Source: Cyclobacteriaceae bacterium
GTDB lineage: Bacteria > Bacteroidota > Bacteroidia > Cytophagales > Cyclobacteriaceae
DNA: 64,000 nucleotides
Assembly (NCBI GenBank): GCA_028278585.1
Contig: JANQEC010000023.1
Coordinates: forward strand, 23,947-87,946
Direction: 5' to 3'
This document shows positions 19,682-52,094 of this stretch, piece after piece (the stretch's first letter is position 1; every line of letters starts with the position of its first letter). The translations under genes were made by a program, and so were the position numbers. The notes below the pieces were generated by a model. That model was not told where the DNA came from. It searched no databases and saw nothing but the letters and a program-made list of their open reading frames with translations.

Positions 19682-20947
19682 TTATCCCTTCACAACGGCT
19701 AAAGGTTTCAATTCAGTCTGTATGGATACCAAGTCCTTTTGGTTTTCCATAACAGTATCTATATTCTTGTAGGCACCGGATGCCTCATCCAAATCTTTCA
19801 CAGTACGGATACCATGAATGATTCCTTGATCGTCCAGTTTCTTGATTTCTTCTTTCAAGTCCAAAGTTCTCTGGGCATGTTTCCTTCCCATAGTCCTTCC
19901 GGCACCGTGAGAACAAGATTCAAAACTTTCGGGGTTTCCCAATCCCTGTACAATGTAACTCGCCGTACCTTGGGAACCGGGGATGATACCAATAGTATCT
20001 TTTCTTGCCAACGTTGCACCCTTACGATGTACTATGACATTTTGACCGAAATGGTTTTCCAAACGGGCATAGTTGTGAGCAATATTGATCTGTTCATCGT
20101 AATCAAATGCATCGCCAATGGCATCGGACATAGATTCCAATACACGATTCATCATTAGTTGTCTACTCGCCAGAGCGAAGTCAACACAATACTGCATCTC
20201 TCTCATATACTGCCAGGCCATAGGATGATCGGTAGTAAGGAATGCCAACTGTTGTTCTTTAGGGACAACGGAATACCACATTTTATTTAGGTCAATGGCT
20301 GTTTTGTTGTAATGGTCTGCAACTTGTTTTCCAAGGTTACGGGAACCGGAATGAATCATAACCCAAACATATCCATCAGAACCTTTTTGGATTTCGATGA
20401 AATGATTTCCGCCACCCAACGTACCGATTTGGGTACGAGCATTTTCATACTCACGAGCAACGATAGGCATTTCCGAATAACTGATATTGTACAATATTCC
20501 TTTTGCCGGTTCTGAATATTCTTCTTGTCCCAATTCAACTTCCCCACAAACAACTTTTGCCGGAGTACCATCAGAAATTTTTTGATAACGAGGCATTACA
20601 CCTTCACTCTGTTTCACTCTATGGTGACGGAACCCAACCGGGATTCTTTGACGGATAAAATGCATAACCTTCTTCAAAGTATCAGAATCAATCTCGGTCA
20701 ACTCGGTTTTACATGCACACATACCACAACCAATATCAACTCCCACGGCATTAGGGATCACAACACCTTTGGTAGCGATCACACCACCAATAGGCATTCC
20801 GTATCCTTGGTGACTGTCGGGCATAAGGGCAACATGTTTGAAAAGGAACGGAAGATTGGCAAGGTTCTTCGCCTGAGCGAGTGCCCCATCTTCGATGTCT
20901 TCCAACCACATTTTGATAGGTTTGTTTTCGGTACTAATTACTTTCAT
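19682..20947 (-). CDS. rtcB: RNA-splicing/repair ligase RtcB
   Basis: MPDSHQG, GVDIGCG, GTLGGGNHF, HSGSR, HNY, HRKGA, SCSHGAGR. Confidence 0.95.
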   Translation of the reverse strand: MKVISTENKPIKMWLEDIEDGALAQAKNLANLPFLFKHVALMPDSHQGYGMPIGGVIATKGVVIPNAVGVDIGCGMCACKTELTEIDSDTLKKVMHFIRQRIPVGFRHHRVKQSEGVMPRYQKISDGTPAKVVCGEVELGQEEYSEPAKGILYNISYSEMPIVAREYENARTQIGTLGGGNHFIEIQKGSDGYVWVMIHSGSRNLGKQVADHYNKTAIDLNKMWYSVVPKEQQLAFLTTDHPMAWQYMREMQYCVDFALASRQLMMNRVLESMSDAIGDAFDYDEQINIAHNYARLENHFGQNVIVHRKGATLARKDTIGIIPGSQGTASYIVQGLGNPESFESCSHGAGRTMGRKHAQRTLDLKEEIKKLDDQGIIHGIRTVKDLDEASGAYKNIDTVMENQKDLVSIQTELKPLAVVKG

Positions 20948-21165
20948 TATTCCTTCCACTCCAAATCAAATTTAAAAATCTTTTCTGCAACATCTCCCAT
21001 GAAATCTGGCAATTCTTCGTATGCAAAATCGGATTGTACCAAAACTTCTCCACAAAAACTTTCGTGTTTGGTGAACCATTTTAGTATTGTTTGAAACAAC
21101 ACTTCTTTGGTTTCTTGATCGTCTTGGTATTGTACCACAGCATTTTTTGTTTCAATTTTTGCCAT
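20947..21165 (-). CDS. hypothetical protein
   Basis: GAGGAG RBS. Confidence 0.6.
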   Translation of the reverse strand: MAKIETKNAVVQYQDDQETKEVLFQTILKWFTKHESFCGEVLVQSDFAYEELPDFMGDVAEKIFKFDLEWKE

Positions 21166-22081
21166 TGAAAAACTCCTCATAAATTTCAATTGCCAAATCG
21201 TTGATCTTTTTCCTGTCCGAAGAACGGGGCAGAGTAGATGTCTTGTATAGTTCCTCTAACTCTATATCCACTCGTTTCACTTCCTCAATGATGTCTTTCC
21301 AATCCACGTTTCCCTGTCGAATGTCCAACAGATAATCAGCATCAATTCCTGTCCGGTCAACAATCACCTTTCCTTCCGACAAGATTTCTTTTCCCATTCT
21401 CATCAACCGGATAAGATGTGAGGCATGTTTTGAATCATACCCACACTTTGCTTCCAACTTGGCACGTTTCGGGTTTCTGTTCTTTTTCCAGTTATCATAT
21501 GAGTGCCACTCTTTTCGAGCGGTGGCATATTTCATTTCCTGCATTGCTTCTTCCCGAACTTCACTTTCGATGAATCGGGGTTCGATAGCAATGATTGCCT
21601 TCATCTGTTCTTTGGGGATGTTTTTGGAGTTCTCCGGCAGACCAAAGGCTTTTCGTTTTGGTTCCTCTACTGGATTGAACAACCAACCCCTATGACTTTT
21701 GATTCTTCTCAACTGGGCAACAGCATAACCGGAATAGGTGAACTTTGCTTTCTTGGAAAGAAACAAGTCTCTATTTGCTACTACCTTTTCCCATACGGGT
21801 GTAGTGTGTAACCAATTCTTTCGTGACGTATACAGAAAATCAATCATGTTTGGATTATTGTTTGCCATGAGGTTGAAGGCAAATCGTAATTCATACCAAA
21901 CTTTATCATCACCTTTGAAACCATCGAACTGATCGAATCGTTCCATGCCAAAAACATGGGTCTTGGGCGACAATACAATTCCTCTTGTATCAAGATCACT
22001 CTCTGCGGTGGCGGTTCCATATGAGTTGGAGCCTGTCACCGTTTCGAAGATCAAATTGGGTCTTAGCTGTTTTTCGTTCAT
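21152..22081 (-). CDS. Pol-beta-superfamily nucleotidyltransferase (RlaP/YcgL-like)
   Basis: GSNSYG...SDLDTRG, NPN, YDSKHASHLIRL. Confidence 0.85.
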   Translation of the reverse strand: MNEKQLRPNLIFETVTGSNSYGTATAESDLDTRGIVLSPKTHVFGMERFDQFDGFKGDDKVWYELRFAFNLMANNNPNMIDFLYTSRKNWLHTTPVWEKVVANRDLFLSKKAKFTYSGYAVAQLRRIKSHRGWLFNPVEEPKRKAFGLPENSKNIPKEQMKAIIAIEPRFIESEVREEAMQEMKYATARKEWHSYDNWKKNRNPKRAKLEAKCGYDSKHASHLIRLMRMGKEILSEGKVIVDRTGIDADYLLDIRQGNVDWKDIIEEVKRVDIELEELYKTSTLPRSSDRKKINDLAIEIYEEFFNGKN

Positions 22082-27431: not shown

Positions 27432-27974
27432 TTATCTTTTTTGCCAGTAGAAGAAATCTTTCCAGTTTTCGTCTACGTTCTTTATCTCCTTCAATCTCTC
27501 TATGTTATATTCCTCAATACTATTTGCGATCTTCGGAGCAAATGGTTTGTTCAACAATTTCAACCCTGCCTGTGCGACAGACTTATCTGCCTTACGGTTG
27601 TTACATTCATGGCAGGAACAAACCACGTTTGTCCATGTACTTAGTCCACCTTGGCTTTTTGGTGTAACGTGATCAACCGTGTATTTGTTGTATGACACTT
27701 CTTTGCCACAATACTGACATACACCTTCATCCCTTGCCCAAATGTTCTTTCGGGTAAACGGTCTGTATATGGTGATGTTTCTTTTGGGTCTAACGTAGTA
27801 CAATAAACGTATTACGGAAGGCGCCTTCATTTTCAAATTCACGGATCGGATAGGTATATCTTCATAGGAAGACAATACTTCTACCTTTTCCTTATACCAT
27901 AGGACTATGGCTTCTTTCCAGTTCACAACAGCAACTGGCATATATGAACGATTCAATACCAGTACGTCACGCAT
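27432..27974 (-). CDS. HNH endonuclease (McrA-like)
   Basis: VLVLN, RDxxxCQYCG, TVDHVTPKSQGG, CHECNNRK. Confidence 0.92.
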   Translation of the reverse strand: MRDVLVLNRSYMPVAVVNWKEAIVLWYKEKVEVLSSYEDIPIRSVNLKMKAPSVIRLLYYVRPKRNITIYRPFTRKNIWARDEGVCQYCGKEVSYNKYTVDHVTPKSQGGLSTWTNVVCSCHECNNRKADKSVAQAGLKLLNKPFAPKIANSIEEYNIERLKEIKNVDENWKDFFYWQKR

Positions 27975-28902: not shown

Positions 28903-29427
28903 CTATTGTACTTTCTTCCTAATCTCTTTGATAATCTTTTTCTGCACCGGAGTCAACTTTCTTTTTAGGTTGTCCAGTATGAAATTCGTTTCCTTTGTAT
29001 ACTTATCTTTGAATTTTGCAGAACCAGTATCCAAATCCTTTACGTTATCCAACCTATCACACAATTTGACAGTCAAGGCACCCTCACTCATTTTGGACAT
29101 CTTATCCAAAAGGAACTTTGCCTTTCCTAATCGTTTTATCCCTTCATCCGAGCTGGTTAATTCTTTTACCAGATCCGTAATCGTTTTACCAAAGTTCTCC
29201 CTCAATTCCTTCTCTGTTGCATTGGTATCTTCCAACGTATCGTGAAGGTATGCCGCGGCCACAAGGTCTTTGTCTTTGGTGAACTTGTTGACCAACTTTG
29301 CCACACTTGACGGATGTACAAAGTATTCCTTACCAGAGAACTTCCTGACTTGCCCCTTGTGCTTCTCTTGGGCGAATCGGATTATGTCTCTGATGGATTC
29401 AGTTATGTAGAATTCTTTGAAAGACAT
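28903..29427 (-). CDS. HD-domain (p)ppGpp-hydrolase-like protein (Mesh1/SAH type)
   Basis: HKGQVRK, YFVHP, AAYLHDTLEDT, VKLCDRLDN. Confidence 0.9.
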   Translation of the reverse strand: MSFKEFYITESIRDIIRFAQEKHKGQVRKFSGKEYFVHPSSVAKLVNKFTKDKDLVAAAYLHDTLEDTNATEKELRENFGKTITDLVKELTSSDEGIKRLGKAKFLLDKMSKMSEGALTVKLCDRLDNVKDLDTGSAKFKDKYTKETNFILDNLKRKLTPVQKKIIKEIRKKVQ

Positions 29428-30398: not shown

Positions 30399-31184
30399 TC
30401 AGATTTCATTTGTTTCGATTGTTTGTCCCTGTATAGCGAATCCAACGAAACCAGAATCTATAGCTTTTGTTTGCCATTCCTCCAAATTATCACATACATT
30501 ATCTTGATAATGAACCAGATACATCTTCTTTTTTGTTTCCTCATCCAAGGTACACAATTCATCAAAGTGGGCATGTACACCCGATTTGTAAGGTGCCGTT
30601 TCACAATCTTGAATAATGGTGTCTGCTTGATTGTAAAAATCCTGTATTTGATTTGGGCAGTGCTGTGTATCTCCTGTGATGTAAATGTTTTTCCCGTTGC
30701 AACGAATCATCAAACCATATGTCCGAACAATCGAATACCCATTCATAATATGAACAGATTGAACAATCTTGAACCTTGAAGTATGCCCAAACATGAACGA
30801 TTCATTTTCTTCGATTTCCTTGACATCAAAATAGTCTCGTAAATTGACTACCTTTCCTTGGATGGAACCCAACCCCAATGACAGGGCATTGTTCCAAACA
30901 TCATCCAGCAATCCTTTGTTGCCGTATAGTATTGGTTTCTTACAGGTGGGATCGAAGTAGGTACAAAAACCCAAATACTCCATTCCACCAATATGATCGG
31001 CGTGACCATGTGTAATGTAGATGGCATCAATATCCTTATATGTCAATTTTTGATCTTGTAATGCCCAGCGAATGTCACCACCGGCATCTACCAATAGTTT
31101 CTTTTCTTCGTTCTCAATCAAAAGGTTTGTCTGGTAGTTCTTCATGCAAAATGCTGAACCTGTGCCAAGAAATGTGATTTTCAT
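30399..31184 (-). CDS. MBL-fold metallo-hydrolase (RNase Z/BN-like)
   Basis: FLGTGS, THGHADHIGG, TGDT, HAH, VHY. Confidence 0.88.
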   Translation of the reverse strand: MKITFLGTGSAFCMKNYQTNLLIENEEKKLLVDAGGDIRWALQDQKLTYKDIDAIYITHGHADHIGGMEYLGFCTYFDPTCKKPILYGNKGLLDDVWNNALSLGLGSIQGKVVNLRDYFDVKEIEENESFMFGHTSRFKIVQSVHIMNGYSIVRTYGLMIRCNGKNIYITGDTQHCPNQIQDFYNQADTIIQDCETAPYKSGVHAHFDELCTLDEETKKKMYLVHYQDNVCDNLEEWQTKAIDSGFVGFAIQGQTIETNEI

Positions 31185-31888
31185 CTATACTCCCATTTGT
31201 CTATGTAGAACCCTAATCGGTTCTCAATGTATTTGATTTGTTCCGGTTTCAATTCCTTTTTGTAACTACATGCCTCACCCCTTCTGAATATGCCTGGCTT
31301 CTGTATCTTCGATTTCCCGAAGTTCTCTGTTATCATCTTGTTTGTGTGTCCGGGATCAAGACCGATTATCTCACACAAATTCTCAATGATGAAATTTGGA
31401 TCATACAACAATTCTTCATACTTCAACGTGTACACATTTTTGTGATCTACAAACGGCAAAAATGGTTTCATGTGATCTTCGTATTGTTTTATCGAATCAT
31501 CCACGTTCACACTACTGTAAAACTCTGTCGCCAACATTGAATTGATAACTGCCCGGGGATCCCTTACAATGTGAAGTACCATGACTTCCGGCATTGCCTT
31601 CAGAATCTTTCCCATTACAATCATGTGTGTCGGGGATTTTTCCACCAGAAACTTGCCCGGGTTTCTCATACTCACTTGGGTTAGTCGATGTTCCGCAAAC
31701 TCTATGGAGTCTGTAACGAAACAACCCGTTTCACAACGGACAAGGTTTCCCTTTATGTTTCTTGAGGAAATGTCTGGATGGATATGTTCGATGGTGATCC
31801 CAACCGTTTCGGGATGTGAGTCTAACAATGACCAAAGCCAAGTCGTTCCCGATCTTGGCACACCTACAATCAATACAAGATTTTTCAT
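31181..31888 (-). CDS. sulfotransferase
   Basis: GVPRSGTT, EKSP, RDPRAVINS, YEEL. Confidence 0.88.
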   Translation of the reverse strand: MKNLVLIVGVPRSGTTWLWSLLDSHPETVGITIEHIHPDISSRNIKGNLVRCETGCFVTDSIEFAEHRLTQVSMRNPGKFLVEKSPTHMIVMGKILKAMPEVMVLHIVRDPRAVINSMLATEFYSSVNVDDSIKQYEDHMKPFLPFVDHKNVYTLKYEELLYDPNFIIENLCEIIGLDPGHTNKMITENFGKSKIQKPGIFRRGEACSYKKELKPEQIKYIENRLGFYIDKWEYR

Positions 31889-31895
31889 GGTAAGA

Positions 31896-32100
31896 AAAGG
31901 GGGATAGTCATTCTAAAGACTTATGACGGAGGACATACGACAGAAAACCGAAAGACTTAGGACTAAAAAGCGTTAGGACTTTATCTTTATCGGCTCATAA
32001 CCATGAGTAGTTTCGGTCTACATGAAGTAGTTATATTCACGATTCATGAATCACGAATGACCCAATCCTCAATGAACGTTTTGAACAACTATCCGCCCCT
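31896..32100 (-). ncRNA. putative structured ncRNA with GUC heptad repeats
   Basis: terminal stem GGATAGTTGTTC/GAATGACTATCC plus AGGG/CCCT, internal hairpins, 7-nt periodic GTC track. Confidence 0.6.
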
Positions 32101-32107
32101 GTTATTT

Positions 32108-32542
32108 TTAGATTTCGGTTGTTGCGTTGAACTCGTCCAGTTCATCCACAATAGCTTCAATCCTTTCTTCCAAACTCTTGACTTGTGTTCTCTTGTCGGC
32201 AAGTGTCAATTGGGATTTGTATTCCAATGTTCCTTCGCCGTAAGAACGTGCCTGAACACCGTTAGTAACGGAAATGTTCTTGACCGTTGACAAGTAATCC
32301 TTCAATTCGCCAAGGGTAAGAATCTGTTTGTACTTTCCACCGTTGACGTTTGCCACCATGATCTTGTTTTTGAGGTCAACCAATTCTTCTTTCTTGGCAT
32401 CCATTTCATCAATTAGATCGTTATATTTTTCTTCAAACTCGTTATCCTTCAATGTAGTGCTGCTGGATTGAAGTCTGGAATTGAGTTCTGAAATTTCCCC
32501 TTTCAACTTGGTTACTTTCTTGAGGGCTTTGGCAATTTTCAT
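32108..32542 (-). CDS. DIP1984/DUF6847-like coiled-coil protein
   Basis: MKIAKALK...LKNKIMVAN...IEAIVDELDEFNATTEI pattern. Confidence 0.7.
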   Translation of the reverse strand: MKIAKALKKVTKLKGEISELNSRLQSSSTTLKDNEFEEKYNDLIDEMDAKKEELVDLKNKIMVANVNGGKYKQILTLGELKDYLSTVKNISVTNGVQARSYGEGTLEYKSQLTLADKRTQVKSLEERIEAIVDELDEFNATTEI

Positions 32543-32587
32543 ATCACATACTCCTTGTGGTTTTTGTTTACTTTTTCGTAATCGAAG

Positions 32588-32642
32588 TATTTATAATATA
32601 TATTCTGAAAAATAGGGGGGTCAAGAATTATTTTCTGGATCC
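32588..32642 (-). promoter_or_regulatory. overlapping early (sigma70-like) and late (TATAAATA) promoters
   Basis: GGATCCAGAAAA...TTGACC-18 nt-TATATT; TATAAATA at 32588-32595. Confidence 0.7.
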
Positions 32643-35752: not shown

Positions 35753-36310
35753 CTAAAACAAAGGTCTTCCTTTGTGGTAATTATCCATCCTTTCTATTTC
35801 TCTCTTCCACCATTCAATATAACCATCGGCAATGCCGGATTCTTTATTCAGTATTTCAAGTACATACTGATTTGGCATAATGGTCTTATTGTTTTCATGG
35901 AATTCTCTTCCATTCAACTTTAAGTATTTAGTAGCGAACAATCCTACTGCTCCCGACCTACTTACACCAGCGGCACAATGGACGATTAGTGTAGGAATGT
36001 TTTCTTTGTTTACCTCATCCAAAAAGTTAATAGTCCAAATCGCATCTTGCTTATTGAACAGTTTGATTTGTTTTTGTGTTTCCTCTCCTACAGTTTTGTA
36101 CTGATCTAACGTAATGTCATCGAAACACAAAGACAAACATTTTTGGCAACCAAGTTTTCTTGACAATTCTACATTTTTAAAATTCATCAACTCATGGTCT
36201 TTGTGAATAGAAATCAATGCCCAGTTATCGAATGGACAAACCAATTCCTTTAACCATTTTTCTATCGCCATTCTTGGCATTGCTAATACTTTGTTAATCA
36301 TCTTGCTCAC
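35753..36310 (-). CDS. protein-tyrosine/dual-specificity phosphatase-like protein
   Basis: VHCAAGVSRS (CX5R), FDD, PN. Confidence 0.88.
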   Translation of the reverse strand: MSKMINKVLAMPRMAIEKWLKELVCPFDNWALISIHKDHELMNFKNVELSRKLGCQKCLSLCFDDITLDQYKTVGEETQKQIKLFNKQDAIWTINFLDEVNKENIPTLIVHCAAGVSRSGAVGLFATKYLKLNGREFHENNKTIMPNQYVLEILNKESGIADGYIEWWKREIERMDNYHKGRPLF

Positions 36311-39155: not shown

Positions 39156-39656
39156 TTAATTTGGCAACTTGCAAGAATAACCACCGTAATCCATTCCAAT
39201 CATTCTCAAATGATCTATGATATACGGATCATACATATCACCATAATCTGCTCGGGCAATCAATTTGTAATCAGTTGAATGACCATCCAATTTGATTTCT
39301 GTTTGTCCTTCCCTTGGATATACTACATGTACTAAGTTGACACTATGTACGGGTATTTCATCTGGCCCTTCTCTGAAAAATGTTTCCTTGACACTTAACA
39401 TGGAGCCTACCATACAATCAAGATTTGTTTCCTCTTTTACAATTCTTCTTGATGCCTCTTTAATTGTTTCCCCTTTGTGCATCCTACCACCGGGAAACCA
39501 CCATTTTCCTTTTGCCGGTTCGTCCTTTCGTTTTACCAATAAAACTTTTCCATCTATAACAACAATGTTGTCAACACATAACAACATCATGTTTCTAAGA
39601 AATTCGTTATACAACTCTTGTGGGATCCATTTTTTCTTATGTATCATTTTCACCAT
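39156..39656 (-). CDS. Nudix hydrolase (GDP-mannose mannosyl hydrolase-like)
   Basis: EPAKGKWWFPGGR...GET...EETNL. Confidence 0.85.
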   Translation of the reverse strand: MVKMIHKKKWIPQELYNEFLRNMMLLCVDNIVVIDGKVLLVKRKDEPAKGKWWFPGGRMHKGETIKEASRRIVKEETNLDCMVGSMLSVKETFFREGPDEIPVHSVNLVHVVYPREGQTEIKLDGHSTDYKLIARADYGDMYDPYIIDHLRMIGMDYGGYSCKLPN

Positions 39657-40332
39657 ACCTCTTCAAATATTTGTTATAAATGTTTGGGAACCTTTTTATT
39701 AGATGGTCATCTATTTTCAGTTTAGTTTCTTTTGTTAATTTCTTTGAATGAAACAACAGTTCATTTCTTGTTCCGTTAGTTCTTGGCTTATCTATTTTCT
39801 TTCCATATAATTCCAATGAAGTTTTTCTGTGTTGCTCATATTGTTTCATAAAGGAAGTTATATTTCCTTTATTGCCTCCGAACTGTTCCAAAAATTTTAC
39901 CAACCTTGACAATTCTTGGTAAGGGTTTTGCACCAAATCCTCATAGTATATAAGGTGTTTCTTTTCCTTTGTGTATTCAAACAATTTTAGTATTGATATA
40001 TAATCTGTTTTCTCAATGCCAGTTTTTAGAGGCAGGCCGCCCTGTAGATCGGAAAATACCTTGGCTAAATCTCCATCACAATTTCTAACTACACATTCCT
40101 TGTAATTTCTAACCATGAGTATTAGTGAATCTTTGCATAGTATGAAATCTTTCCACCAAGATTTTGTGTTTCCATGTGACTTGGTTATTTTGTTTCCAAT
40201 AGATAAAAATCCTGTTAAAGATCCTCCTATTTGCATTTCTGACAAACATTCAATACAGTATGATAACCAATTACTGCCACTTCTTGGGTAACTCAACAAA
40301 GACAGTTTGTATTCTACCCCACCACAAATCAC
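39637..40332 (-). CDS. sulfotransferase-like protein
   Basis: SYPRSGSNWL, RNYKE, YYEDL. Confidence 0.75.
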   Translation of the reverse strand: MICGGVEYKLSLLSYPRSGSNWLSYCIECLSEMQIGGSLTGFLSIGNKITKSHGNTKSWWKDFILCKDSLILMVRNYKECVVRNCDGDLAKVFSDLQGGLPLKTGIEKTDYISILKLFEYTKEKKHLIYYEDLVQNPYQELSRLVKFLEQFGGNKGNITSFMKQYEQHRKTSLELYGKKIDKPRTNGTRNELLFHSKKLTKETKLKIDDHLIKRFPNIYNKYLKRYGENDT

Positions 40333-41513
40333 GGTCTAATAACTCCATTGACAATTGTACAAATTCTTTCTACATCTTCTCTTTTTAGTTTATCATGGTT
40401 TGGCAAATAAAACCCATGTTCATCCACCACTTCATTTGCGAATTCGGCATACTCAATCATTCCTTTTTGGTGTCGGATCATTTCTTGATTTTTGATATAT
40501 GGTTGTTTCAACATTGACCCACATATCAATGGTCTTGTCTCTACATCACTTTCCCGTAATGCCTCTACTATCTTTCTGGAAGCAGGATGGATAACCGGAT
40601 ATGCAAAATTGGAAATGAAATCGTTAGGATCTACATTTGGTTTCCAGTAGTCATTCTGAATTAACTCTTGATATGACTTGAAGTTTTCGGATCGAATATG
40701 GCAAGAGATAGTTATCTTCTTCATCTGTTCCAACCCTATAAATGCCTGTAGGTCTGTTCCCCGTAGATTGAAACCGGGATGATAGAATGTATACAAGGCA
40801 CGAAATTCATCAACATTATTTTTGGCTCTTAGTTGTTCTTGAAATGATTTATCTAAACCTCTATCCCAACCATGATTTCGCATCATTCTCAGGGCATTGT
40901 ACAATTCATAGTCATTAGTACAAACCATACCACCTTCGATTGTTGACATATGATGACCAAAGAAGAAAGAGAAGGAACTCATTTTTCCCAACGTTCCTAC
41001 CTTTTGTCCACGGTACATAGTTCCTAATGCCTCACAACAATCTTCCAAAACAGTAACATCATATTCTCTGCATAGTTCCAAAATATTTTCCATGTCACAA
41101 GGCAAACCAAGGACATGTACTAATACCAATGCCGATGGATGATACGTTTCAAACAATCTTTTCAAATGTTCAACATCTACACCAAGATTGTTTTTGTCGG
41201 CATCACAAAATACTGGCTGGTGTTCCATTTGAATTACAGGTGCCACCGTTGTTGCCCAAGAAATTGCTGGTACAACGATTCTCTTGTTTTTGAGTTTTCC
41301 CAAGGCTTTTAGGGTGTAGATCATTAAGAGGTTTGCTGAGGAGCCAGAGTTGACAAACACGGAATAGTTGACATTTTGCCAACGTGAAAATGCCTTTTCA
41401 AATTCTTCTACCTTGTCACTTTGGGTTAGTCGAGGAAGGGGATCTTGACTTAACCAACCCACAAGATTTTGAACATCACTCTTATCAATTGTTTCTTCAA
41501 CTAAACGAATCAT
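40329..41513 (-). CDS. colD: GDP-4-keto-6-deoxy-mannose 3-dehydratase (ColD-type, DegT family)
   Basis: SFFFGHHMSTIEGGM with His at the usual Lys position; NSGSSANL. Confidence 0.8.
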   Translation of the reverse strand: MIRLVEETIDKSDVQNLVGWLSQDPLPRLTQSDKVEEFEKAFSRWQNVNYSVFVNSGSSANLLMIYTLKALGKLKNKRIVVPAISWATTVAPVIQMEHQPVFCDADKNNLGVDVEHLKRLFETYHPSALVLVHVLGLPCDMENILELCREYDVTVLEDCCEALGTMYRGQKVGTLGKMSSFSFFFGHHMSTIEGGMVCTNDYELYNALRMMRNHGWDRGLDKSFQEQLRAKNNVDEFRALYTFYHPGFNLRGTDLQAFIGLEQMKKITISCHIRSENFKSYQELIQNDYWKPNVDPNDFISNFAYPVIHPASRKIVEALRESDVETRPLICGSMLKQPYIKNQEMIRHQKGMIEYAEFANEVVDEHGFYLPNHDKLKREDVERICTIVNGVIRP

Positions 41514-42442
41514 TTGTATGTCTCCCGATAATATTCAATTGTGTTTTTCAAACCATCAATAAATGGGGTCTTTGCTTCCCACCCCAAAGTATTTATCTTT
41601 TGTACATCTAACCGTTTGACTAACATACCATCTGGTTTTGAAATATCATGTACAAATCTTGGATGATAGTCAACCAAATCACAAACCATTTTTGTTAATT
41701 CCAAAACAGAAATATCTTCTCCGGTTCCAACATTCAAAAAGGAATCGGCGGTCAAACAATCCATTGACCAAATCATACAATCTATCAAATCATCTATATA
41801 CAAAAATTCTCGCCTTGGTTTTCCACTTCCCCATATATCAATTGGTGTGTTATTCTTTTTTGCTTCGATCACCTTTCTAACGGTAGCAGAAAGTACATGA
41901 GATTTTTGTGGATGAAAGTCATCTCCCGGACCATATAGATTGCATGGCATCAGAGAAATGAATTTGTTTCCGAACTGTTTATTTGCATACTCACACATTT
42001 TTAGACCTGCAATCTTGGCGATTGCATACCCTTCGTTTGTTGGTTCAACTGGTGCTTGTAGTAAGTATTCTTCTCTCAATGGTTGGTTTGGATAGTCTTT
42101 AGGATAGATACAAGATGATCCTAAGAACAGAGCCTTCTTTACCCAATCACGTTTACAGCATGCCTCTATCACGTTGTTCTGGATCTGTAAATTATCATAT
42201 AAGAACTTGTATGGATTCTGAATGTTTGCCTGTATTCCACCGACAACCGCGGCACAATGGAAAACATATTCGGGCCTACTTTGTTCCATAAAATTCCACA
42301 CTTCTTCTTGAAGCAAAAGATTTACATCCATTCTATGAGTAGTTACAACATCTGTATAACCAGAGTTTTGTAATCTCTTCAATAGTGTATGACCAACAAA
42401 GCCGTGGTGGCCGGTGATGTAAATTCTGGAATCTTTATTCAC
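41510..42442 (-). CDS. fcl: GDP-L-fucose/colitose synthase (epimerase-reductase)
   Basis: AAVVGGI, GSSCIYP, EPTNEGYAIAK, NLYGP, REFLY. Confidence 0.92.
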   Translation of the reverse strand: MNKDSRIYITGHHGFVGHTLLKRLQNSGYTDVVTTHRMDVNLLLQEEVWNFMEQSRPEYVFHCAAVVGGIQANIQNPYKFLYDNLQIQNNVIEACCKRDWVKKALFLGSSCIYPKDYPNQPLREEYLLQAPVEPTNEGYAIAKIAGLKMCEYANKQFGNKFISLMPCNLYGPGDDFHPQKSHVLSATVRKVIEAKKNNTPIDIWGSGKPRREFLYIDDLIDCMIWSMDCLTADSFLNVGTGEDISVLELTKMVCDLVDYHPRFVHDISKPDGMLVKRLDVQKINTLGWEAKTPFIDGLKNTIEYYRETYK

Positions 42443-43097
42443 AATACCTCCTCAAATATTTATCAAACAAAATTGGGTATTTATTCTCAAACTCTTTATC
42501 TATAGATTGTAAAATTTTTGTATCTATGTCTTTGGAATGGTGTATCAATTCTCCATTTGATTTTGCTCCACCCGGACCCCGGTATAGTTGCAATGATCTC
42601 ATTTTATGTTCGTGAAAATTACAAAAGAACTCTTCAAAAAATTCATTGTCACAATTTAGAAACGTACATATCTTTTTCAGTTCTTCTTTTGGTAAAGTCA
42701 TCAAATCTTCATAATACACCACAATCTTTTTTCGAGGAAAGGAATCAAACAGCTTCAATATTCGTACATAATTAACATCTCTTTCTTCTGTAAGAAGTAA
42801 GTTAAATGTATTTTCAAAATTGTAAACACATTCTTTGTAATTTCGAAGTATGAAAATCAGTTTGTCGTAATTTACATTCTCCCATGTGGATTTTCCCACA
42901 TCTAAACAATGAAATTTTTCTATCACAACATCTTTTCGATACGGAACATCTGGAAGTCTTGCTTTGCTCCACACAGTATGAATGCCAAATTTGCCCGAAT
43001 CTCTTCCAACAACTTCAATATCTGTTAGGTATTCTATACAGTAAGATAACCAATTGCTACCACTTTTGGGATATGACAACAATCCTATTCGATTCAT
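42435..43097 (-). CDS. sulfotransferase-like protein (paralogue of 39637..40332)
   Basis: SYPKSGSNWLSYCIE, RNYKEC, YYEDL. Confidence 0.75.
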   Translation of the reverse strand: MNRIGLLSYPKSGSNWLSYCIEYLTDIEVVGRDSGKFGIHTVWSKARLPDVPYRKDVVIEKFHCLDVGKSTWENVNYDKLIFILRNYKECVYNFENTFNLLLTEERDVNYVRILKLFDSFPRKKIVVYYEDLMTLPKEELKKICTFLNCDNEFFEEFFCNFHEHKMRSLQLYRGPGGAKSNGELIHHSKDIDTKILQSIDKEFENKYPILFDKYLRRYCE

Positions 43098-43672
43098 TTT
43101 TTCAATTCCCATGATTCCCAAACAAAGGGAAAGTTCCAAGATACTTTGTGCGTTTCCTTCAATTTGGTTATGATTTCTTCTCTCAATACCTTTGCATCTT
43201 TAAACCAATCATGAAATTGTACCTGTATGTTAGTTATTTTCTTAATTAGGTTTTCATTGTTTGTCAGAAATTTCATCAATTCATATTCTGATCCCTCTAT
43301 ATTGACTTTCATTAAATCTATTTTGTCAATACCAAGTTCCTCAAAAACAGTTTCGAAATTTCTAATTTTAATAAGTTTTTTGTTTTCTGTTTTTCTTGGA
43401 GAACTATCAAAAATAGAAGATGAATCCTTGGAAATAGAAATATCTGTTTCAAAATCTCTATCTAAAACACCATAATTAAAAACTCGTATTTCATTTTTTG
43501 CTTTGAACCTTTCTTTTATCTTATCATAGAATTCTTTTATGGGTTCAAAAACAAAAACCTTGCATTTGTATTTGTCAAAGATGGTGTTTGCAAATTTTCC
43601 CTCATAACCACCCAAATCAAATACAATACTTTCAGAATTTAAATCATACTCATATCTAAGAGATTCTTTCAT
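43094..43672 (-). CDS. FkbM-family methyltransferase
   Basis: DLGGYEG, FEP, KVNIEGSEY, QFH. Confidence 0.88.
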   Translation of the reverse strand: MKESLRYEYDLNSESIVFDLGGYEGKFANTIFDKYKCKVFVFEPIKEFYDKIKERFKAKNEIRVFNYGVLDRDFETDISISKDSSSIFDSSPRKTENKKLIKIRNFETVFEELGIDKIDLMKVNIEGSEYELMKFLTNNENLIKKITNIQVQFHDWFKDAKVLREEIITKLKETHKVSWNFPFVWESWELKK

Positions 43673-43683
43673 TCTATTCTGTC

Positions 43684-44505
43684 CTATGCACTTCTTAGTT
43701 TATCTCTAATTGGCTTTTCGTTTTCTAAACATTCAATCTTTCCATCGCCCCAAGACTTTTCATATGTTTCGATGTAGTCTTTAATTTTCAATACACCCGT
43801 TGGCTCAATAGATGCTGATTGATCACTACCATACATTGATCTATCCAATGTAATGTGATATTCTATCATCTCTGCACCAAGAACATATGACATTAAAATA
43901 AAGGATATGCCAGAAGAATGATTTGAAAACCCAACCTTATCGGCATATCTATTTCGTAATGTTTTTATTCTATTCATGTTCATGTCTTCAGGTTTTGTTG
44001 GGTATGTCGATGTGCAGGATAAAATATATGCCATTTGACTACCGAAAAATTTCGCGGCGCGGTCTACTTCAAATTCAGAACTCATTCCTGTGGCAATTAT
44101 TACGGGAATGTCAGTATTCTTAATTGCTTTTAACATTGGCTCATTTGTCAACATTGCCGATGCCACTTTGATAAATGGCATATCATACTGTGCGAGAAAA
44201 TCAACTGACTTTACATCCCACGGAGATGCAAACCATTGAATTCCCTTTTCCTTACAATACCTATCTATTTCATCATAATCTTCTTTGGTGAATTCCAAAC
44301 CATTCTTTTGTTCCCTGTTAGTTGTTCCCCAAGGCGATTCTCTATACTTGTCTAATTCTTCTTTTGTGTATACATCTTCTACTGTTCTCTTTTGGAATTT
44401 AACATACTGACAACCACCAAGTTTTGCAACGTCAATGAGTTGTTTTGCAATATTCAAATCTCCATTGTGATTGATTCCAATTTCTGCTACCAATTTTGTT
44501 TTCAT
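43684..44505 (-). CDS. neuB: nonulosonate synthase (NeuB family, no SAF domain)
   Basis: AEIGINHNG, VKFQKR, KVAS, STYP, EYHITLDR. Confidence 0.92.
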   Translation of the reverse strand: MKTKLVAEIGINHNGDLNIAKQLIDVAKLGGCQYVKFQKRTVEDVYTKEELDKYRESPWGTTNREQKNGLEFTKEDYDEIDRYCKEKGIQWFASPWDVKSVDFLAQYDMPFIKVASAMLTNEPMLKAIKNTDIPVIIATGMSSEFEVDRAAKFFGSQMAYILSCTSTYPTKPEDMNMNRIKTLRNRYADKVGFSNHSSGISFILMSYVLGAEMIEYHITLDRSMYGSDQSASIEPTGVLKIKDYIETYEKSWGDGKIECLENEKPIRDKLRSA

Positions 44506-44508
44506 TTT

Positions 44509-45156
44509 TCACTCTCCCTCTTTTCTGAATACTAAATTCACACTTCCTTTGTTATTGGCTGTTTTTCTATACATCAATTCTGTGCCTGCCGATTGGAATA
44601 GATCAATCCATTTTTCTTCATCAAAAACAGAAAGATGTAGATTTGATATTGTTTCAAATTTCTTATTCTCTTCTTTCATTTTGTTTAATAGTTCATTCGA
44701 TCCTTGTTCACGAATGGTAGCAATCTTAACAGCAATATACTTTTTGGAAACTCTGATCACTTCCGAAATTGCTAATTTTACTTCTGATTCTTCTATGTGT
44801 TCCAACACATCTGTTGAAACTACTAAATCAAAACTATTTTCTGGAAATGGTATGTCCAGAACAGAAGCAACCCTTGCATCAAATCCTCTGGCCAAAGACC
44901 TTTGTATTGCTTTGTTGGAAACATCTATTCCCTTTGTCTCTTTACCTATAGATGTTAAATAATTCATACCGTTTCCTGTTGAGCAACCAACATCTAAAAC
45001 AGTATGATATTCTATCTTTGTTTTGTCTATACTGTATATTAATTGTCCCTGTCCCATTGTCGGGCAATATAAATGGCTATGCAATTCTTCATTGAATGTA
45101 GGATCATATCCATTATCGTAAAGATGGTTGTATATTTCAAAATAATTGATGGACAT
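44509..45156 (-). CDS. class I SAM-dependent methyltransferase
   Basis: LDVGCSTG, DVLEHI. Confidence 0.85.
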   Translation of the reverse strand: MSINYFEIYNHLYDNGYDPTFNEELHSHLYCPTMGQGQLIYSIDKTKIEYHTVLDVGCSTGNGMNYLTSIGKETKGIDVSNKAIQRSLARGFDARVASVLDIPFPENSFDLVVSTDVLEHIEESEVKLAISEVIRVSKKYIAVKIATIREQGSNELLNKMKEENKKFETISNLHLSVFDEEKWIDLFQSAGTELMYRKTANNKGSVNLVFRKEGE

Positions 45157-45167
45157 TTCTATCTCCT

Positions 45168-45962
45168 TTATCCTCTTGGTATTCCCCAAAACTCACAGTT
45201 AGAACATAAGGGCACGTCTTTCCTATTGCCTCTTACATGTGATTCTATCCATTGTTTTCTCTTTTCAGAATTCCACAATTCCTCAAATGTATTATCGTTT
45301 AGATTTCCCAAAACACCGGAACCATTTGGATCAAACCGGACACAAATCGACAAATCACCATCTACGTTTATAGCGGGATGATTCAGCATCTCCAAACAAA
45401 TTCCTGTTTCTGGCTTAACCGTTTCCTTTTTGTATTCAAAACTTCCCATTGGTGAATGAAGTATTCGTTTCACCATAAGACAATTTAGACTTTCATATTT
45501 TTCTATTCGGTTCTTTTCCATATTTCCAAGTAACCGTATAATGACGTTTGGCCTTTTATCGCCTTTCCATTCCAAATACTTTTTCAAGATGTAGAATTGT
45601 TCTTCCCATTCTGGATCATTTTCAAATGTTGATACTGTCATGGTATCCAAGAATTTCACTTCATGAAATTTTTCGAGTAATAATTTTCCATTCGTATCAA
45701 AACACTTTATCTGCCGGCTAAACAGTCTCAAGGCATCGGCAAGTAATGGGTACAATGTTGGTTCCCCATTACTATGAAACTGAATAACAATCCCTGCAGG
45801 CAATTGTTTGGCAATTTTTTCCAGTAGTGTAAAACTGATATTCTTGTTATAGTGATCTGCTAATTTGGGATACTCTCGTTCCACTTTTCGCCGGCCACAC
45901 ATCCAACAATTTTTGTTGCATCTGTTTGTCAACTCTATGTTTATTGTCGATGGAAAATTCAT
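45168..45962 (-). CDS. radical SAM / SPASM-domain protein
   Basis: CNKNCWMC, GEP, C-terminal Cys cluster. Confidence 0.88.
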   Translation of the reverse strand: MNFPSTINIELTNRCNKNCWMCGRRKVEREYPKLADHYNKNISFTLLEKIAKQLPAGIVIQFHSNGEPTLYPLLADALRLFSRQIKCFDTNGKLLLEKFHEVKFLDTMTVSTFENDPEWEEQFYILKKYLEWKGDKRPNVIIRLLGNMEKNRIEKYESLNCLMVKRILHSPMGSFEYKKETVKPETGICLEMLNHPAINVDGDLSICVRFDPNGSGVLGNLNDNTFEELWNSEKRKQWIESHVRGNRKDVPLCSNCEFWGIPRG

Positions 45963-46609
45963 GGCTTCACTCCTGTACCCAGCACCATCAATTCAACTGA
46001 CCACCGAATGAATTTGTTTTTGATCTTGTAATTTGGCGATACGAATAGTTGTAACATCTTACTTACTAATTTCATTTTTGGAAATTGCCAGAGTATTGGC
46101 AATTGATAAAAATTTTCCGATGACACATTCTGAAAACCAAACATCTGTAGAAAATCTTCCATACTATTTTTTGTGTATGGTGTTCTATGGGTATAGTCAT
46201 CATAGAAAATTTTGTATTGTGTATTCCAATCGGGGACCATTAGAATAATTCTACCATTTGGTTTCAATACTCTATGACATTCTGTAATGAAGTTTTCTGG
46301 ATTTGCCAAATGTTCCAATAGTGATTTGGAAAACACTACATCAAAGAATTCATCTTCATGAAGAATAAAATCGTGTTCCAAATCGGCATAGTCGATGTTC
46401 AATCCTTCGTGGAACCTCGTTTCTTCTTTGTCGATAGAAAAAACGTCTAAGTTAAATGCCCGCGAAAAATCTCCACGGCCGCAGCCAACATCCAACAATT
46501 TCATATCGGGGGTTAAATGAAAACGATCACAAAGATACCGGCACAATTTCTGTGGGTAATCTGTTTGTTCTCTTTTTTGTGTGGAGTAAATAGTTTCAAT
46601 GTATGGCAC
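45959..46609 (-). CDS. class I SAM-dependent methyltransferase
   Basis: LDVGCGRG, KSLLEH, DYTH. Confidence 0.85.
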   Translation of the reverse strand: MPYIETIYSTQKREQTDYPQKLCRYLCDRFHLTPDMKLLDVGCGRGDFSRAFNLDVFSIDKEETRFHEGLNIDYADLEHDFILHEDEFFDVVFSKSLLEHLANPENFITECHRVLKPNGRIILMVPDWNTQYKIFYDDYTHRTPYTKNSMEDFLQMFGFQNVSSENFYQLPILWQFPKMKLVSKMLQLFVSPNYKIKNKFIRWSVELMVLGTGVKP

Positions 46610-46999
46610 TTACAATACCTCAACTAATTCAACTCGGTATCCATTTGGGTCCAAACAAAAACCAACCTTAACAGATTTGTCTGGCGACAATCTCGGCGAA
46701 ACCACAAAACCGATACCAATTTTTGTCAATTCTTTTTCTGTATGGTCTAAATCATCTACTGTAAAACATATATGACTCTCATACGAATATTTATACTTTC
46801 TGAAATGTTCGCGTTTCAATTCGATAAATTCCAAAATACTTCCATTTGGATCTTTCATTTTTGCAATTCTCATAGTGGGGTAATATTTGCCCCATTCCTC
46901 ATCTTGTCTATAAATCAATTGTAGTCCCAATTTTTCATAGAACTCCACAGATTTTTCAAGATTGATAACGTTCCACCCAAAATGTCTAATCAAGAACAT
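46610..46999 (-). CDS. VOC/glyoxalase family protein
   Basis: RHFG, HICFTV, DPNGYRVELVE. Confidence 0.85.
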   Translation of the reverse strand: MFLIRHFGWNVINLEKSVEFYEKLGLQLIYRQDEEWGKYYPTMRIAKMKDPNGSILEFIELKREHFRKYKYSYESHICFTVDDLDHTEKELTKIGIGFVVSPRLSPDKSVKVGFCLDPNGYRVELVEVL

Positions 47000-48158
47000 G
47001 ATTCAATACCTCACATAAAATATCCAAACCTTTATTCAAATTCTTTTTGGTGATGGTTATAGGGGGCCCCAACTTTATTGATTCTCTTCCAGTATGAACT
47101 AACAACAAACCTCTTTCCATACACCATTTACAAACAATGTCTGCGATTCTTTTATGTGGTAGTATGATTCCAGAAACACTACCATGTGTATTAATCTCAC
47201 ATTGTTTTGAAAATATTTTCAGCCTATCGTTAATAATATATTCATTTTCCATTGAAATATCAAAATAATTTTTTCGACAAAGCTCATCAAGAACCCCACA
47301 ACCAGCGGCACAACAAAGAGGATTTGCTGAGTGGGTACTGCTCATTTCTCCTTCTTTTGGTAAATCCATAATTCTTGCCCGGCCCACAACACCAGCCAAA
47401 GGCAAACCAGATCCCGCCGCTTTGCCGAAACAAACCAAATCCGGTCGAACATGATAATTATAAAATCCAAACATAGGACCAGTTCTGTAAAATCGTGCCT
47501 GGACCTCATCAAAACACACAACAATACTATTGTTTTTACAATAAGAAACCATTGACTTTACATATTCTGTTGGTAAAAATTTTGCTGACCATCCTTGATA
47601 TGTTTCTATCATTATTCCAGCGACTTCATCCAAATCTATATTAAGTCTATGTAAGTCTTGTACAAAATCCGAATTTATATTTGGAAATGGTAGTCTAACA
47701 AAATTCTTATGACTATAAATACCATTCCCTTTCATCAAGTCTGCGGCCATTGTTCTTCCATGCATCGCGCCATCAAAGGAAAGTATAATATCTTTCGACT
47801 TCATATATTTCTTGCCATTCATCAACATCAATTTTGTAGCTGCCTCAGTTGCTTCAGTTCCAGATGATAACAATAATGCCTTCTCACAATAATATGGTAT
47901 ACGGGCAATCAACCGAGAAACATATTCTTCACGAGCTTCATTCTTGTAAATATACGAATGTAAAAGATTCTTATTGACTTGTTTTTTGATTCGTTTCTTT
48001 ACTTGTTTATTTGAATGACCAAAATTCATCACAAAAATAGATGATGTGAAATCTATATATTTCTTTCTATCCATCCCTACAACAATATCATTCTTTGCTT
48101 TCTTCCATCTAATAGGAAGAAATGTTTTCATAGAACTTGGCTCAAGGTATTCAATCAT
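46986..48158 (-). CDS. class III PLP aminotransferase
   Basis: SGTEA, HGRT, DEVQ, PDLVCFGK, STH. Confidence 0.9.
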   Translation of the reverse strand: MIEYLEPSSMKTFLPIRWKKAKNDIVVGMDRKKYIDFTSSIFVMNFGHSNKQVKKRIKKQVNKNLLHSYIYKNEAREEYVSRLIARIPYYCEKALLLSSGTEATEAATKLMLMNGKKYMKSKDIILSFDGAMHGRTMAADLMKGNGIYSHKNFVRLPFPNINSDFVQDLHRLNIDLDEVAGIMIETYQGWSAKFLPTEYVKSMVSYCKNNSIVVCFDEVQARFYRTGPMFGFYNYHVRPDLVCFGKAAGSGLPLAGVVGRARIMDLPKEGEMSSTHSANPLCCAAGCGVLDELCRKNYFDISMENEYIINDRLKIFSKQCEINTHGSVSGIILPHKRIADIVCKWCMERGLLLVHTGRESIKLGPPITITKKNLNKGLDILCEVLNHVLD

Positions 48159-48159
48159 A

Positions 48160-48849
48160 TTAACTGTTCCTTTTTCTTAATGTGTATTCTAAATATTCAA
48201 AATCTTCTTCCGAATCTATTTCTATTGCTGGTTTTGTTCTAAAAGCCATTACAGATGAACCATAAGTTGTTTTTGTTTCTAACAATGTTTTAACTCTAAT
48301 CACATCAACATAACCATTTGGATGATAACAATCCCCAAAATTTTGTCTTGGTGCATCTGCTTCTTCATGTGAAATTTTCATATAGGGTGTGGCTTCATCT
48401 CTATATCCTATCCGGTACATCTTTTCTGGTGGTTCATTTATTTTGTGCATTGACCTTAAAGAATGATACCGTGTTTCACGAAAATTCAGAATTGCTCTGT
48501 CTACAGCATTGTGTGTTCTTATTGGAGTAGTTGGTCGTAACAATACTATCAAATCATCTAAACCAAACCCCAATGTGTAAGAAACATGTAACAAATAATC
48601 TACGTCTTTGCTATTGTCTGTTGATAAAAACCCCGGCCTCATAACAACTTGTACACTCTCTGAAAAATTTTTCGTTAAATTTGCATAGTGTTCACTATCA
48701 GTTGTTAAAATTGTTCTGTCGATACACTTTGATTTTTCAGATACCTTGATAGAATGAAATATTAAAGGAATCCCACCAACCAGCCGAATATTCTTATCTT
48801 TCACCCCCTTTGAACCACTTCTTGCAGGGATTGCTCCATATATTTTCAT
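48160..48849 (-). CDS. neuA: acylneuraminate cytidylyltransferase
   Basis: IPARSGSKGVKDKN, RPTTPIR, EIDS. Confidence 0.92.
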   Translation of the reverse strand: MKIYGAIPARSGSKGVKDKNIRLVGGIPLIFHSIKVSEKSKCIDRTILTTDSEHYANLTKNFSESVQVVMRPGFLSTDNSKDVDYLLHVSYTLGFGLDDLIVLLRPTTPIRTHNAVDRAILNFRETRYHSLRSMHKINEPPEKMYRIGYRDEATPYMKISHEEADAPRQNFGDCYHPNGYVDVIRVKTLLETKTTYGSSVMAFRTKPAIEIDSEEDFEYLEYTLRKRNS

Positions 48850-49565
48850 CTCAATTCTCCAATGGGAGCAACGTCAAATGTGGAATTCTTGTTTAAATTG
48901 ATTACATCAACTCCCACGTTTTTGGCAGAATCTACTATGATTTTCAAATCCTTGAGGATTCTTTCTCTAAATTGAGATTGTGATTTTGCGTTTGGTAATC
49001 TGATATTACCATTATGTTTGGCATACCCCAAACTATAATCCAAATCAATACCAACAAAATAAATTGGATTACACCCAAACAAAACCATAAAAGAAATCAT
49101 GTGGATAGCACATGTATCACCAGCACCATAATGCTGATCAAACTTACAATAGTGTTGTAATTCTTCTTGTATTGTTTTTCTACCGGGAACCAATTGGTGA
49201 CAACATTTCTTAGCATAACATGGTTTGTTGTCAAAATGTCTTTGATCATATCCAAGATATTCACACTTCAAATTATTTTCAATCCATTTTCTATCTGTTA
49301 GGTCTACGGTATCGGCATACAAAATGGGAATTCGATATTGATTCAGAACGTGGATTTGACTTGACATTGTTAATTGAGTATTTGCAAATAACCAATAATC
49401 TGGCTGAAACGAATGAAACAAATGCCATTCATTACATTCTATTACAATGTGGCCAGATTTTTGTTTGTTTTCTATTTCTTCTATGTGATCATTCAGGCTT
49501 GGTCCATGAGCAATTACTATTGCTGGTTTGCCTTTATGATTGTCTATAAGAGGTTCAATATTCAT
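48846..49565 (-). CDS. DUF115/Maf-like (GT29-fold-like) protein
   Basis: AIVIAHGPSL, GCNPIYFVGID. Confidence 0.75.
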   Translation of the reverse strand: MNIEPLIDNHKGKPAIVIAHGPSLNDHIEEIENKQKSGHIVIECNEWHLFHSFQPDYWLFANTQLTMSSQIHVLNQYRIPILYADTVDLTDRKWIENNLKCEYLGYDQRHFDNKPCYAKKCCHQLVPGRKTIQEELQHYCKFDQHYGAGDTCAIHMISFMVLFGCNPIYFVGIDLDYSLGYAKHNGNIRLPNAKSQSQFRERILKDLKIIVDSAKNVGVDVINLNKNSTFDVAPIGELR

Positions 49566-50542
49566 TTCAAACTTTGCCTTGTCTTATTATAAATCGTCCA
49601 ATTTTTATCCATCTGAATTAAATTGGTTCTCTTATGTTTCAAATGTACTGTCACTATTTCTCTTGTGTATATCACCTTATTTTGTTTACTAATTCTACAA
49701 TTGAATTCCGAATCTTCTGGCCCATATCCCACCATGTTTTCATTGAACCCGCCAATTTTTTGAAAACTTTTCTTGTGAACCAATCCATTGCCATGAGCAA
49801 AACCAACATGACATGGCAGTTGTATCAAAAAATCTAAATCATTAGAATACACGCCGGTTGTCATATTGTAGTTATGAAAAATTACTCTGATTTCTTGTTT
49901 GTATTTTATTTTCAAATTGTTCAATAGAGTTTTCATATTCTCTACATAGTTGTACGGATAAATCAAATCTATGTCCGACATAAAGAAGTATGGTGTCTTA
50001 ACATATTTATTGACTCCAATGTTAATCAACTTTCCTTTACATCCAAATTGTTTTTGATACTTATGTATGTATCGTATGTTTTTTGCTTTTGGGAGCTGGT
50101 CTTTTATTTTTTGTTTTGATCCATTAACAACAATTATTTTTACATTCTGATTTTTTATACTATCTATGGACAAACGAAACCGTTTTAGTGCGGGCAAAAA
50201 ATGTTCATTCTCATATTGAAACGTATAGAGAAAGTGTAGTGGTTTTTCCAGATAGCTATAAGCAAAGTTTTTTTGCAAATCCAAATTAAACTTGTTCTTT
50301 TTTTCTTTTTCTTTTACTCTTTTGTTGTTAAAGTATTCGGCGCCGGCTGGTCTTTTTTTCTCTTTCTTTTCATCCTGGGACCTTTCTTTCCTCCCCTCTT
50401 TGATGAACCTCAAAGTTGCGGAATGTTTCCCCCTCAATGAATCTGGAACTTCTTTTATTTCTCCCTTTAAGAACCTGTATTGTTCGCCACCCTCGACAAG
50501 TGCCACAGAATAAGGCATTATGTTTTGTACAAATATACTCAT
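49562..50542 (-). CDS. glycosyltransferase (GT2/GT7-like)
   Basis: DID, GGFNENMVGYGPED. Confidence 0.8.
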   Translation of the reverse strand: MSIFVQNIMPYSVALVEGGEQYRFLKGEIKEVPDSLRGKHSATLRFIKEGRKERSQDEKKEKKRPAGAEYFNNKRVKEKEKKNKFNLDLQKNFAYSYLEKPLHFLYTFQYENEHFLPALKRFRLSIDSIKNQNVKIIVVNGSKQKIKDQLPKAKNIRYIHKYQKQFGCKGKLINIGVNKYVKTPYFFMSDIDLIYPYNYVENMKTLLNNLKIKYKQEIRVIFHNYNMTTGVYSNDLDFLIQLPCHVGFAHGNGLVHKKSFQKIGGFNENMVGYGPEDSEFNCRISKQNKVIYTREIVTVHLKHKRTNLIQMDKNWTIYNKTRQSLK

Positions 50543-50546
50543 CTTT

Positions 50547-52084: not shown

Positions 52085-52094
52085 ACACTATCCC

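Follow-up and report, generated by a model that had tools for sequence, protein, structure and literature searches.

What might a short gene in the tRNA cluster of a phage-like contig, and the non-coding element directly behind it, do together? The window that we analyzed is a stretch of 64,000 nucleotides of contig C220 (110,153 bases), which belongs to a bacterial bin of 4.19 Mb and 424 contigs. This phage-like contig of 110 kb is the longest of the bin. From its sequence we infer that it comes from a large, jumbo-phage-like phage that was binned with the bacterium, given its dense short ORFs, its 26 tRNAs, its genes for DNA ligase, RtcB and RlaP, an Apyc1 anti-Pycsar gene and an excess of the site TATAAATA; the contig was probably mis-binned or belongs to an infecting phage. 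The tRNA genes called by ARAGORN, 26 in total, flank the gene and the RNA element on both sides, and the gene thus lies within a tRNA cluster, as the original prediction had stated. Also among the tRNAs, all on the minus strand, are genes for an HD-domain protein (HD_4, 28903-29427), an HNH endonuclease (27432-27974) and a dual-specificity-phosphatase-like protein (35753-36310). The Apyc1 anti-Pycsar-type MBL hydrolase (30399-31184, minus strand; 92.6 bits against a Pfam cut-off of 50) is encoded two genes downstream of the RNA element, within the cluster. A sulfotransferase gene (31181-31888, minus strand) starts a few bases past the U-run of the RNA with no Shine-Dalgarno sequence visible, and more sulfotransferase-like and surface-sugar genes lie at ~39600-53600. 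The features of the locus are the following.

32595..32624, minus strand: sigma-70-like (early-type) promoter, TTGACC-18-TATATT (10 of 12 consensus letters)
32588..32595, minus strand: TATAAATA, likely phage late promoter (16 copies in the contig)
32108..32542, minus strand: divergent DIP1984/DUF6847-like ORF, 144 aa (ORF call, profiles, fold)
31898..32100, minus strand: stem-closed non-coding RNA element, 203 nt (folding, homologues)
32083..32100, minus strand: 5' arm of the closing stem P1 (folding, covariation)
31994..32058, minus strand: variable 5' domain with at most three weak hairpins, sequence unconserved (homologues, pair probabilities)
31982..31991, minus strand: conserved GAY-NNN-GAY segment, GAUAAAGAUA in the window (homologues, modest pairing support)
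31973..31979, minus strand: extra GUCCU copy in the linker, 16 nt ahead of the heptads (sequence)
31914..31963, minus strand: seven GUYNU heptads, spacing 7, 8, 7, 7, 7, 7 (pattern scan, hand alignment)
31892..31913, minus strand: 3' arm of P1 and U-run, the likely 3' end (sequence, folding)

Upstream of the gene stand a tRNA-Ile gene and the promoter region, in which the sigma-70-like site overlaps TATAAATA. The latter occurs 16 times in the contig against 6.6 copies expected from the remainder of the bin, mostly ahead of gene starts as judged by eye, and presumably resembles the T4-type late promoter consensus. Both sites of the early and late promoter pair that had been proposed here are present and overlap, but sigma-70-like sites are no more frequent than in shuffles (2 found, 2.6 expected), which makes the early site weak evidence taken alone. 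Among ten close homologues neither site was conserved, the late site being found in one.

The window protein matched the DIP1984 family (NF038048; E 2e-8, 34.5 bits, below the curated cut-off of 70) and DUF6847 (PF20935; E 2e-4, 21.9 bits, below the curated cut-off of 27) over its full length, and 15 of 31 close homologues matched PF20935 at E<=0.001. Deinococcus radiodurans has a native member that exceeds the NF038048 cut-off. A HMMER library search returned 720 relatives, and a profile built from 146 relatives matched the solved structure 3kdq with an E value of 1.1e-6. The AlphaFold model (pLDDT 97.7) is a helical hairpin with a beta-hairpin, for which Foldseek placed 3kdq at rank 1; fold comparison by VIA gave 3kdq a Z score of 14.1 with an rmsd of 2.2 over 142 aligned residues, the next match reaching a Z of 9.5, and 3kdq was the sole whole-chain fold match. 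These profile matches, although below the cut-offs, together with the 3kdq fold over the whole chain uphold the family kinship first suggested for the gene. The window protein is a separate, mostly viral branch of the DIP1984/DUF6847 family. Look-alike clusters in the Atlas were 86-98% viral, a lead only because their recognition value is low. A search of the BFVD yielded nothing at E<=0.001, a first viral scan with the window protein came back empty, and a word-index search with the single window protein returned only itself. No nuclease or toxin family was matched in Pfam, NCBIfam or PHROGs, PADLOC assigned the window protein to 0 families, and no TROVE/vWA domain was matched.

The original prediction had the protein oligomerize on its RNA, and self-association is indeed predicted. 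Folding of four copies gave a self-association score of 0.77 against 0.45 for the best control, although the four-copy job is unlike the calibration set and the score may be a memory of 3kdq. In calibration, 20 of 30 solved pairs and 1 of 23 single chains scored at or above this mark. Across the runs contacts agreed at 93% or more with a pLDDT of at least 87. The predicted interface was that of a two-fold dimer only, the complex job giving neither ring nor filament, so that the window protein is predicted to be a homodimer. Conserved residues K5, K8, K12, K81, N65, D136 and N139 are not among the predicted interface residues; being conserved and off the dimer interface, they are candidate contacts for RNA.

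The non-coding element begins where the original prediction had placed it, a few nucleotides after the stop codon. Its stem starts seven bases past the stop, with 32100-32083 pairing with 31913-31898 (~17 bp) and UUUUCUU following, which closes an element of 203 nt with the expected U-run. Taken alone, the window gave modest support: the fold of the whole element had a z of -2.12 against shuffles, of which 5 in 200 were equally good, and the stem score was reached by 3 of 60 shuffles; the strict cut-off was missed in both stem tests. Since the window alone is borderline, we accept the closing stem on the support of its homologues. The three hairpins proposed for the 5' half can form, but their pair probabilities are low (~0.1, 0.36 and 0.07) and their sequences unconserved, and the first is impossible as it was written, with a 2-nt loop. 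Rfam had no match over the element or in 15 homologous loci, ARAGORN called no tRNA and hence no tRNA-like domain within the element, and a search with covariance model R1 found no second copy of the RNA in the bin.

Support from homologues came from 67 loci with at least 220 nt of downstream sequence, which reduced to 44 non-redundant loci including the window. Compensatory changes were found in 11 of 12 predicted stem pairs across 12 close sequences, and in 12 of 21 across 18 distant ones. G-U outnumbered A-C in the stem columns by 17:6 (close) and 21:3 (distant), an excess which indicates pairing as RNA of the gene's strand. The closing stem beat shuffles at 25 of the 44 loci, compared with 2 of the 43 control regions upstream; 19 of the 44, the window included, failed this strict test. 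Autocorrelation at a lag of 7 nt had a mean z of 1.84 downstream of the gene, while controls lay near or below zero (upstream -0.11, further downstream -0.23, coding -1.06). A profile of ten homologues built without the window found the 3' half of the window element (31992-31899) with an E value of 6.7e-8, and this half was also the best match of that profile across the bin (E 4.4e-6). We are almost certain that the element is a conserved structured RNA.

The GUC-type periodic track that had been described in the 3' half is present, with one additional fixed letter, as GUYNU repeated seven times. A chain of seven such heptads arose in 0 of 5000 shuffles, and the window track was the sole GUYNU chain of at least five when the 4.19-Mb bin was scanned on either strand, both counts using a pattern chosen after the sequence had been seen. 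In 11 close RNAs, with heptads anchored by hand, nine had seven heptads, one had eight and one had six. Their letters were nearly fixed at G1 (75/77), U2 (77/77) and Y3 (76/77), these three partly by selection, and at U5 (64/77). The 8-nt step after heptad 2 recurred in 7 of the 11, and 6 of them extrude a hairpin between the fifth and the sixth heptad. Nine of the 11 had GUY chains of at least four; the other 33 loci had none and mostly carry UYAA-type beats; the canonical DIP1984 loci have NNYAC-type beats and in some a T-loop arm (by eye). Distant clades thus keep the architecture of the element with other heptad letters, and the repeat type tracks the protein tree. In that tree a single branch (support 98/77, not starred) contains the GUY loci.

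How general, then, is the pairing of gene and element? Homologues of the close clade keep both heptads and stem, as the original prediction required of a true pair, with one exception: L014, which is among the best-scoring homologues and sits on the GUY branch, shows no RNA of this kind across the available 228 nt. Residues K10, N28 and Q132, invariant among the other 31 non-canonical proteins, are replaced on the GUY branch, which amounts to one event and is a lead only. Of its 12 training RNAs, covariance model R1 found 11 again, and beyond these a single near copy but none of the RNAs from other clades, a circular result among clades that differ in sequence. DNA-pattern scans of viral contigs met the gene at 1 of 5, 1 of 19, 1 of 29 and 0 of 9 loci, and were mostly chance hits; the single locus among the 29, reached by the RNA pattern alone, speaks for the pairing. 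Among 201 genomes from the phylum of the bin, two carried the gene, this bin being one of them; another phylum yielded 1 of 301 genomes and a third 9 of 201, with the centre genome counted each time. Among individual loci, L013 carries a tmRNA overlapped by a group I intron (2278-2895) ~1.1 kb downstream of the homologous RNA, whose 5' stem arm (~940-978) lies inside a C-terminal extension of the ORF. At L025 (~2376-2560) the heptad track is kept, the 3' arm of the closing stem is seemingly lost and rtcA is no longer next.

The strongest functional clue, absent from the original prediction, is the RNA-repair operon context under RtcR and sigma-54. Divergent rtcR was found at 9 of the 43 other loci and rtcA at 8, counts that are not independent since many RtcR loci are from related PVC-group genomes. 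Any RNA-repair or tRNA-processing gene (RtcA/B/R, Ro60, Rnl, PNKP, HAD_SAK_2, RlaP, Thg1 or Pth2) lay within ~2.5 kb at 17 of 43 loci, and none at 26. The neighbor scan covered 147 of 152 listed ORFs plus a further 36 picked by hand. Of 8 RtcR loci scanned for a sigma-54 site, 7 had one 74-321 nt upstream, and in held-out loci RtcR, RtcB or Ro60 was adjacent in 6 of 8. In an annotated Acinetobacter contig, rtcR stands opposite the series rbn-rtcB-X-DIP1984-gap-rtcA. Ro60 co-occurs at two loci (L052 and L141), and the pair does not therefore simply replace Ro60 and Y RNA. In the window, genes for an RtcB ligase and an RlaP-type nucleotidyltransferase lie side by side (19682-22081, minus strand), 10-12 kb off and not adjacent. 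Genes for tRNAs were present at 6 of 10 close loci and a tmRNA at one; at L005, a phage with a close homologue, positions 2599-2672 encode a tRNA with a CUA anticodon (amber-reading). The gene also appears in 369 plasmid records, 340 of them from Acinetobacter. In Acinetobacter plasmids L132 and L133 the 'septicolysin' of some records is the DIP1984 gene, with a stem-closed element downstream; we rejected this toxin annotation because no cytolysin domain was matched. In Salmonella an operon of this kind contains Ro60 along with Y RNAs, and damaged tRNA turns it on (PMC7790460); RNA-repair genes, and in some cases Ro, are also found in jumbo phages (PMC7824862).

Taken together, we consider it quite probable from the sequence comparisons that the RNA binds its own protein, and somewhat better than even that the pair acts in RNA-damage handling. 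A specific version of this idea, which we place just on the likely side of even, is that dimers coat the seven-repeat track to form an RNP in a response to nuclease-damaged tRNA beside RtcB, gene and element being a conserved pair. Such a mechanism would start from a gene and an element that neighbor each other on the same strand, downstream of promoter-like sites, and from an element whose ends covary as paired RNA. The element would be released as a discrete RNA, its 3' end set by the stem and U-run or, in bacteria, by a terminator hairpin. The protein, as a predicted two-fold dimer with conserved basic K5, K8, K12 and K81 off the interface, would then read the heptads, for the most part unpaired, in constant steps of 7 nt and give a particle of set stoichiometry. 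The originally proposed binding of one subunit per heptad finds no support here, as the predicted unit is a dimer and part of the track may be paired with the GAY-NNN-GAY segment. From the operon context, this particle may act on cleaved RNA or tRNA as platform or decoy, much as the Ro60-Y RNA particle does, and in a phage it could shield translation from host anticodon nucleases. A bolder reading, possible but somewhat short of even, is that a counted heptad ruler on a closed RNA templates a fixed number of coiled-coil dimers, the whole being a second, Ro60-independent RNA-repair RNP. If so, repeat letters and protein residues would change together by clade, and jumbo phages would use the pair to counter tRNA-cleaving defenses.

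The RtcR/sigma-54 operon context leads us to favor a repair-linked scaffold over an antitoxin or a TRAP-like attenuator. As an antitoxin or damage sensor, the RNA would sequester a harmful or active protein, which RNase cleavage of the single-stranded track would free. The pair is a stand-alone two-part module on phages and small plasmids (L131, L132), it has repeated sites as type III antitoxins do, and RtcR induction would suit a stress switch. We nevertheless hold this to be unlikely, as the protein matches no nuclease or toxin family and has 3kdq as its only whole-chain fold match, L014 has the gene without the RNA, and 7-nt repeats downstream of the gene are unlike ToxI-type arrays. Were the element instead a cis-acting 3'-UTR or TRAP-like attenuator, heptad binding by the protein would control the decay of its own mRNA or the read-through toward rtcA/rtcB. 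Its position always directly behind the gene would fit, as would the overlap of the 5' stem arm with the ORF end in L013 and the terminator-like hairpins between element and rtcA in several loci. Those hairpins, however, follow the 3' arm of P1 with no competition visible by eye, the next gene is convergent in L028, L058, L068, L022, L131 and L132 and freely variable in phages, and a closed 200-nt fold exceeds the needs of an attenuator; we regard a cis-acting role as unlikely too. A TRAP-like attenuator of a fixed gene was rejected, the downstream gene being variable or convergent in at least six loci.

It is distinctly unlikely, in our view, that the RNA acts alone, with heptads forming GAY:RUY three-pair helices in a compact fold and the protein serving as a chaperone or a loosely linked neighbor. 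By sequence, the GAY-NNN-GAY segment does likely pair with one or two heptads. Own segments and heptads paired better than swapped ones in 8 of 11 close and in 12 of 15 Kiritimatiellae-type RNAs, 66 of 78 cells were paired against 11-40 when slid, no single register being fixed, and the top of P1 is also RUY/GAY (by eye). Own pairing surpassed swapped pairing in just 3 of 5 RNAs of one group and 4 of 12 other RNAs, however, the segment can engage only about two heptads and leaves the last four or five with no conserved partner, and the repeat letters change along with the protein clade. That the track is a DNA-level protein-binding repeat array, or a chance low-complexity spacer with an ordinary terminator, is very improbable and was rejected: the window stem alone is borderline against shuffles, but the RNA-type compensatory changes, the bias of G-U over A-C, and a position, length and repeat count fixed across divergent loci all argue against it.

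In the RtcR-rtcBA operon, substrates and helpers are still open questions (PMC7790460), and the pair is a candidate for a missing RNA-protein component. It occurs in bacteria, in jumbo phages and on common plasmids of Acinetobacter, whose records often annotate the gene as 'septicolysin'. If a short RNA does set protein stoichiometry by a 7-nt ruler, this would be a new RNP design, and with a protein of 144 aa that has a solved relative and an RNA of 203 nt the idea is cheap to test.

Known systems offer partial parallels. Type III toxin-antitoxin systems (ToxIN, CptIN, TenpIN) likewise consist of a protein gene and a repeat RNA on plasmids and phages, their antitoxins being tandem arrays of long pseudoknot repeats that precede the toxin gene. 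The window repeats, in contrast, are 7 nt long and lie in one closed RNA downstream of the gene, and the protein had no match to the ToxN/CptN/TenpN endoribonucleases by family (Pfam, NCBIfam, PHROGs, PADLOC) or fold. In the TRAP-trp leader and CsrA-CsrB systems, short motif repeats with variable spacers are read by an oligomeric protein. Here the fold is different, the repeats are enclosed in a stem-closed RNA that follows the gene of the protein itself, and there is no sign that the DIP1984 pair controls a fixed downstream gene. By context the pair is like Ro60 (Rsr) and Y RNA (YrlA/YrlB), which in rsr-yrlBA-rtcBA operons also combine a protein gene with an adjacent non-coding RNA of paired ends, in Y RNAs a long stem, and a large internal loop (PMC7790460, PMC4201824), and the RtcR/sigma-54 repair operon and occurrence in phages are common to both. 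A paired-end RNA beside a protein gene in an RtcR-controlled rtcBA operon was found in bacterial homologues, whereas in the phage copy RtcB is ~11 kb away. Membership fails on both protein and RNA: the window protein is an unrelated helical hairpin of 144 aa and not a TROVE ring, and its element is ~200 nt long with periodic heptads, against 80-130 nt for Y RNAs, with no YrlA match in Rfam and no tRNA-like domain in the GUYNU clade.

In the literature searched, we found no function or RNA partner for the DIP1984 family, which appeared there only as a plasmid annotation, and no mention of DUF6847 or 3kdq. The RNA was likewise undescribed there; as far as Rfam and this literature go, the protein-RNA module is undescribed, as originally claimed. 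The closest known system is the DIP1984 family (NF038048)/DUF6847 (PF20935) with 3kdq, by the same fold and a full-length profile match. Canonical DIP1984 members, too, have a stem-closed element downstream with a ~7-nt beat (by eye), from which the window RNA differs in combining GAY-NNN-GAY with GUYNU heptads and in dispensing with the T-loop arm of some.
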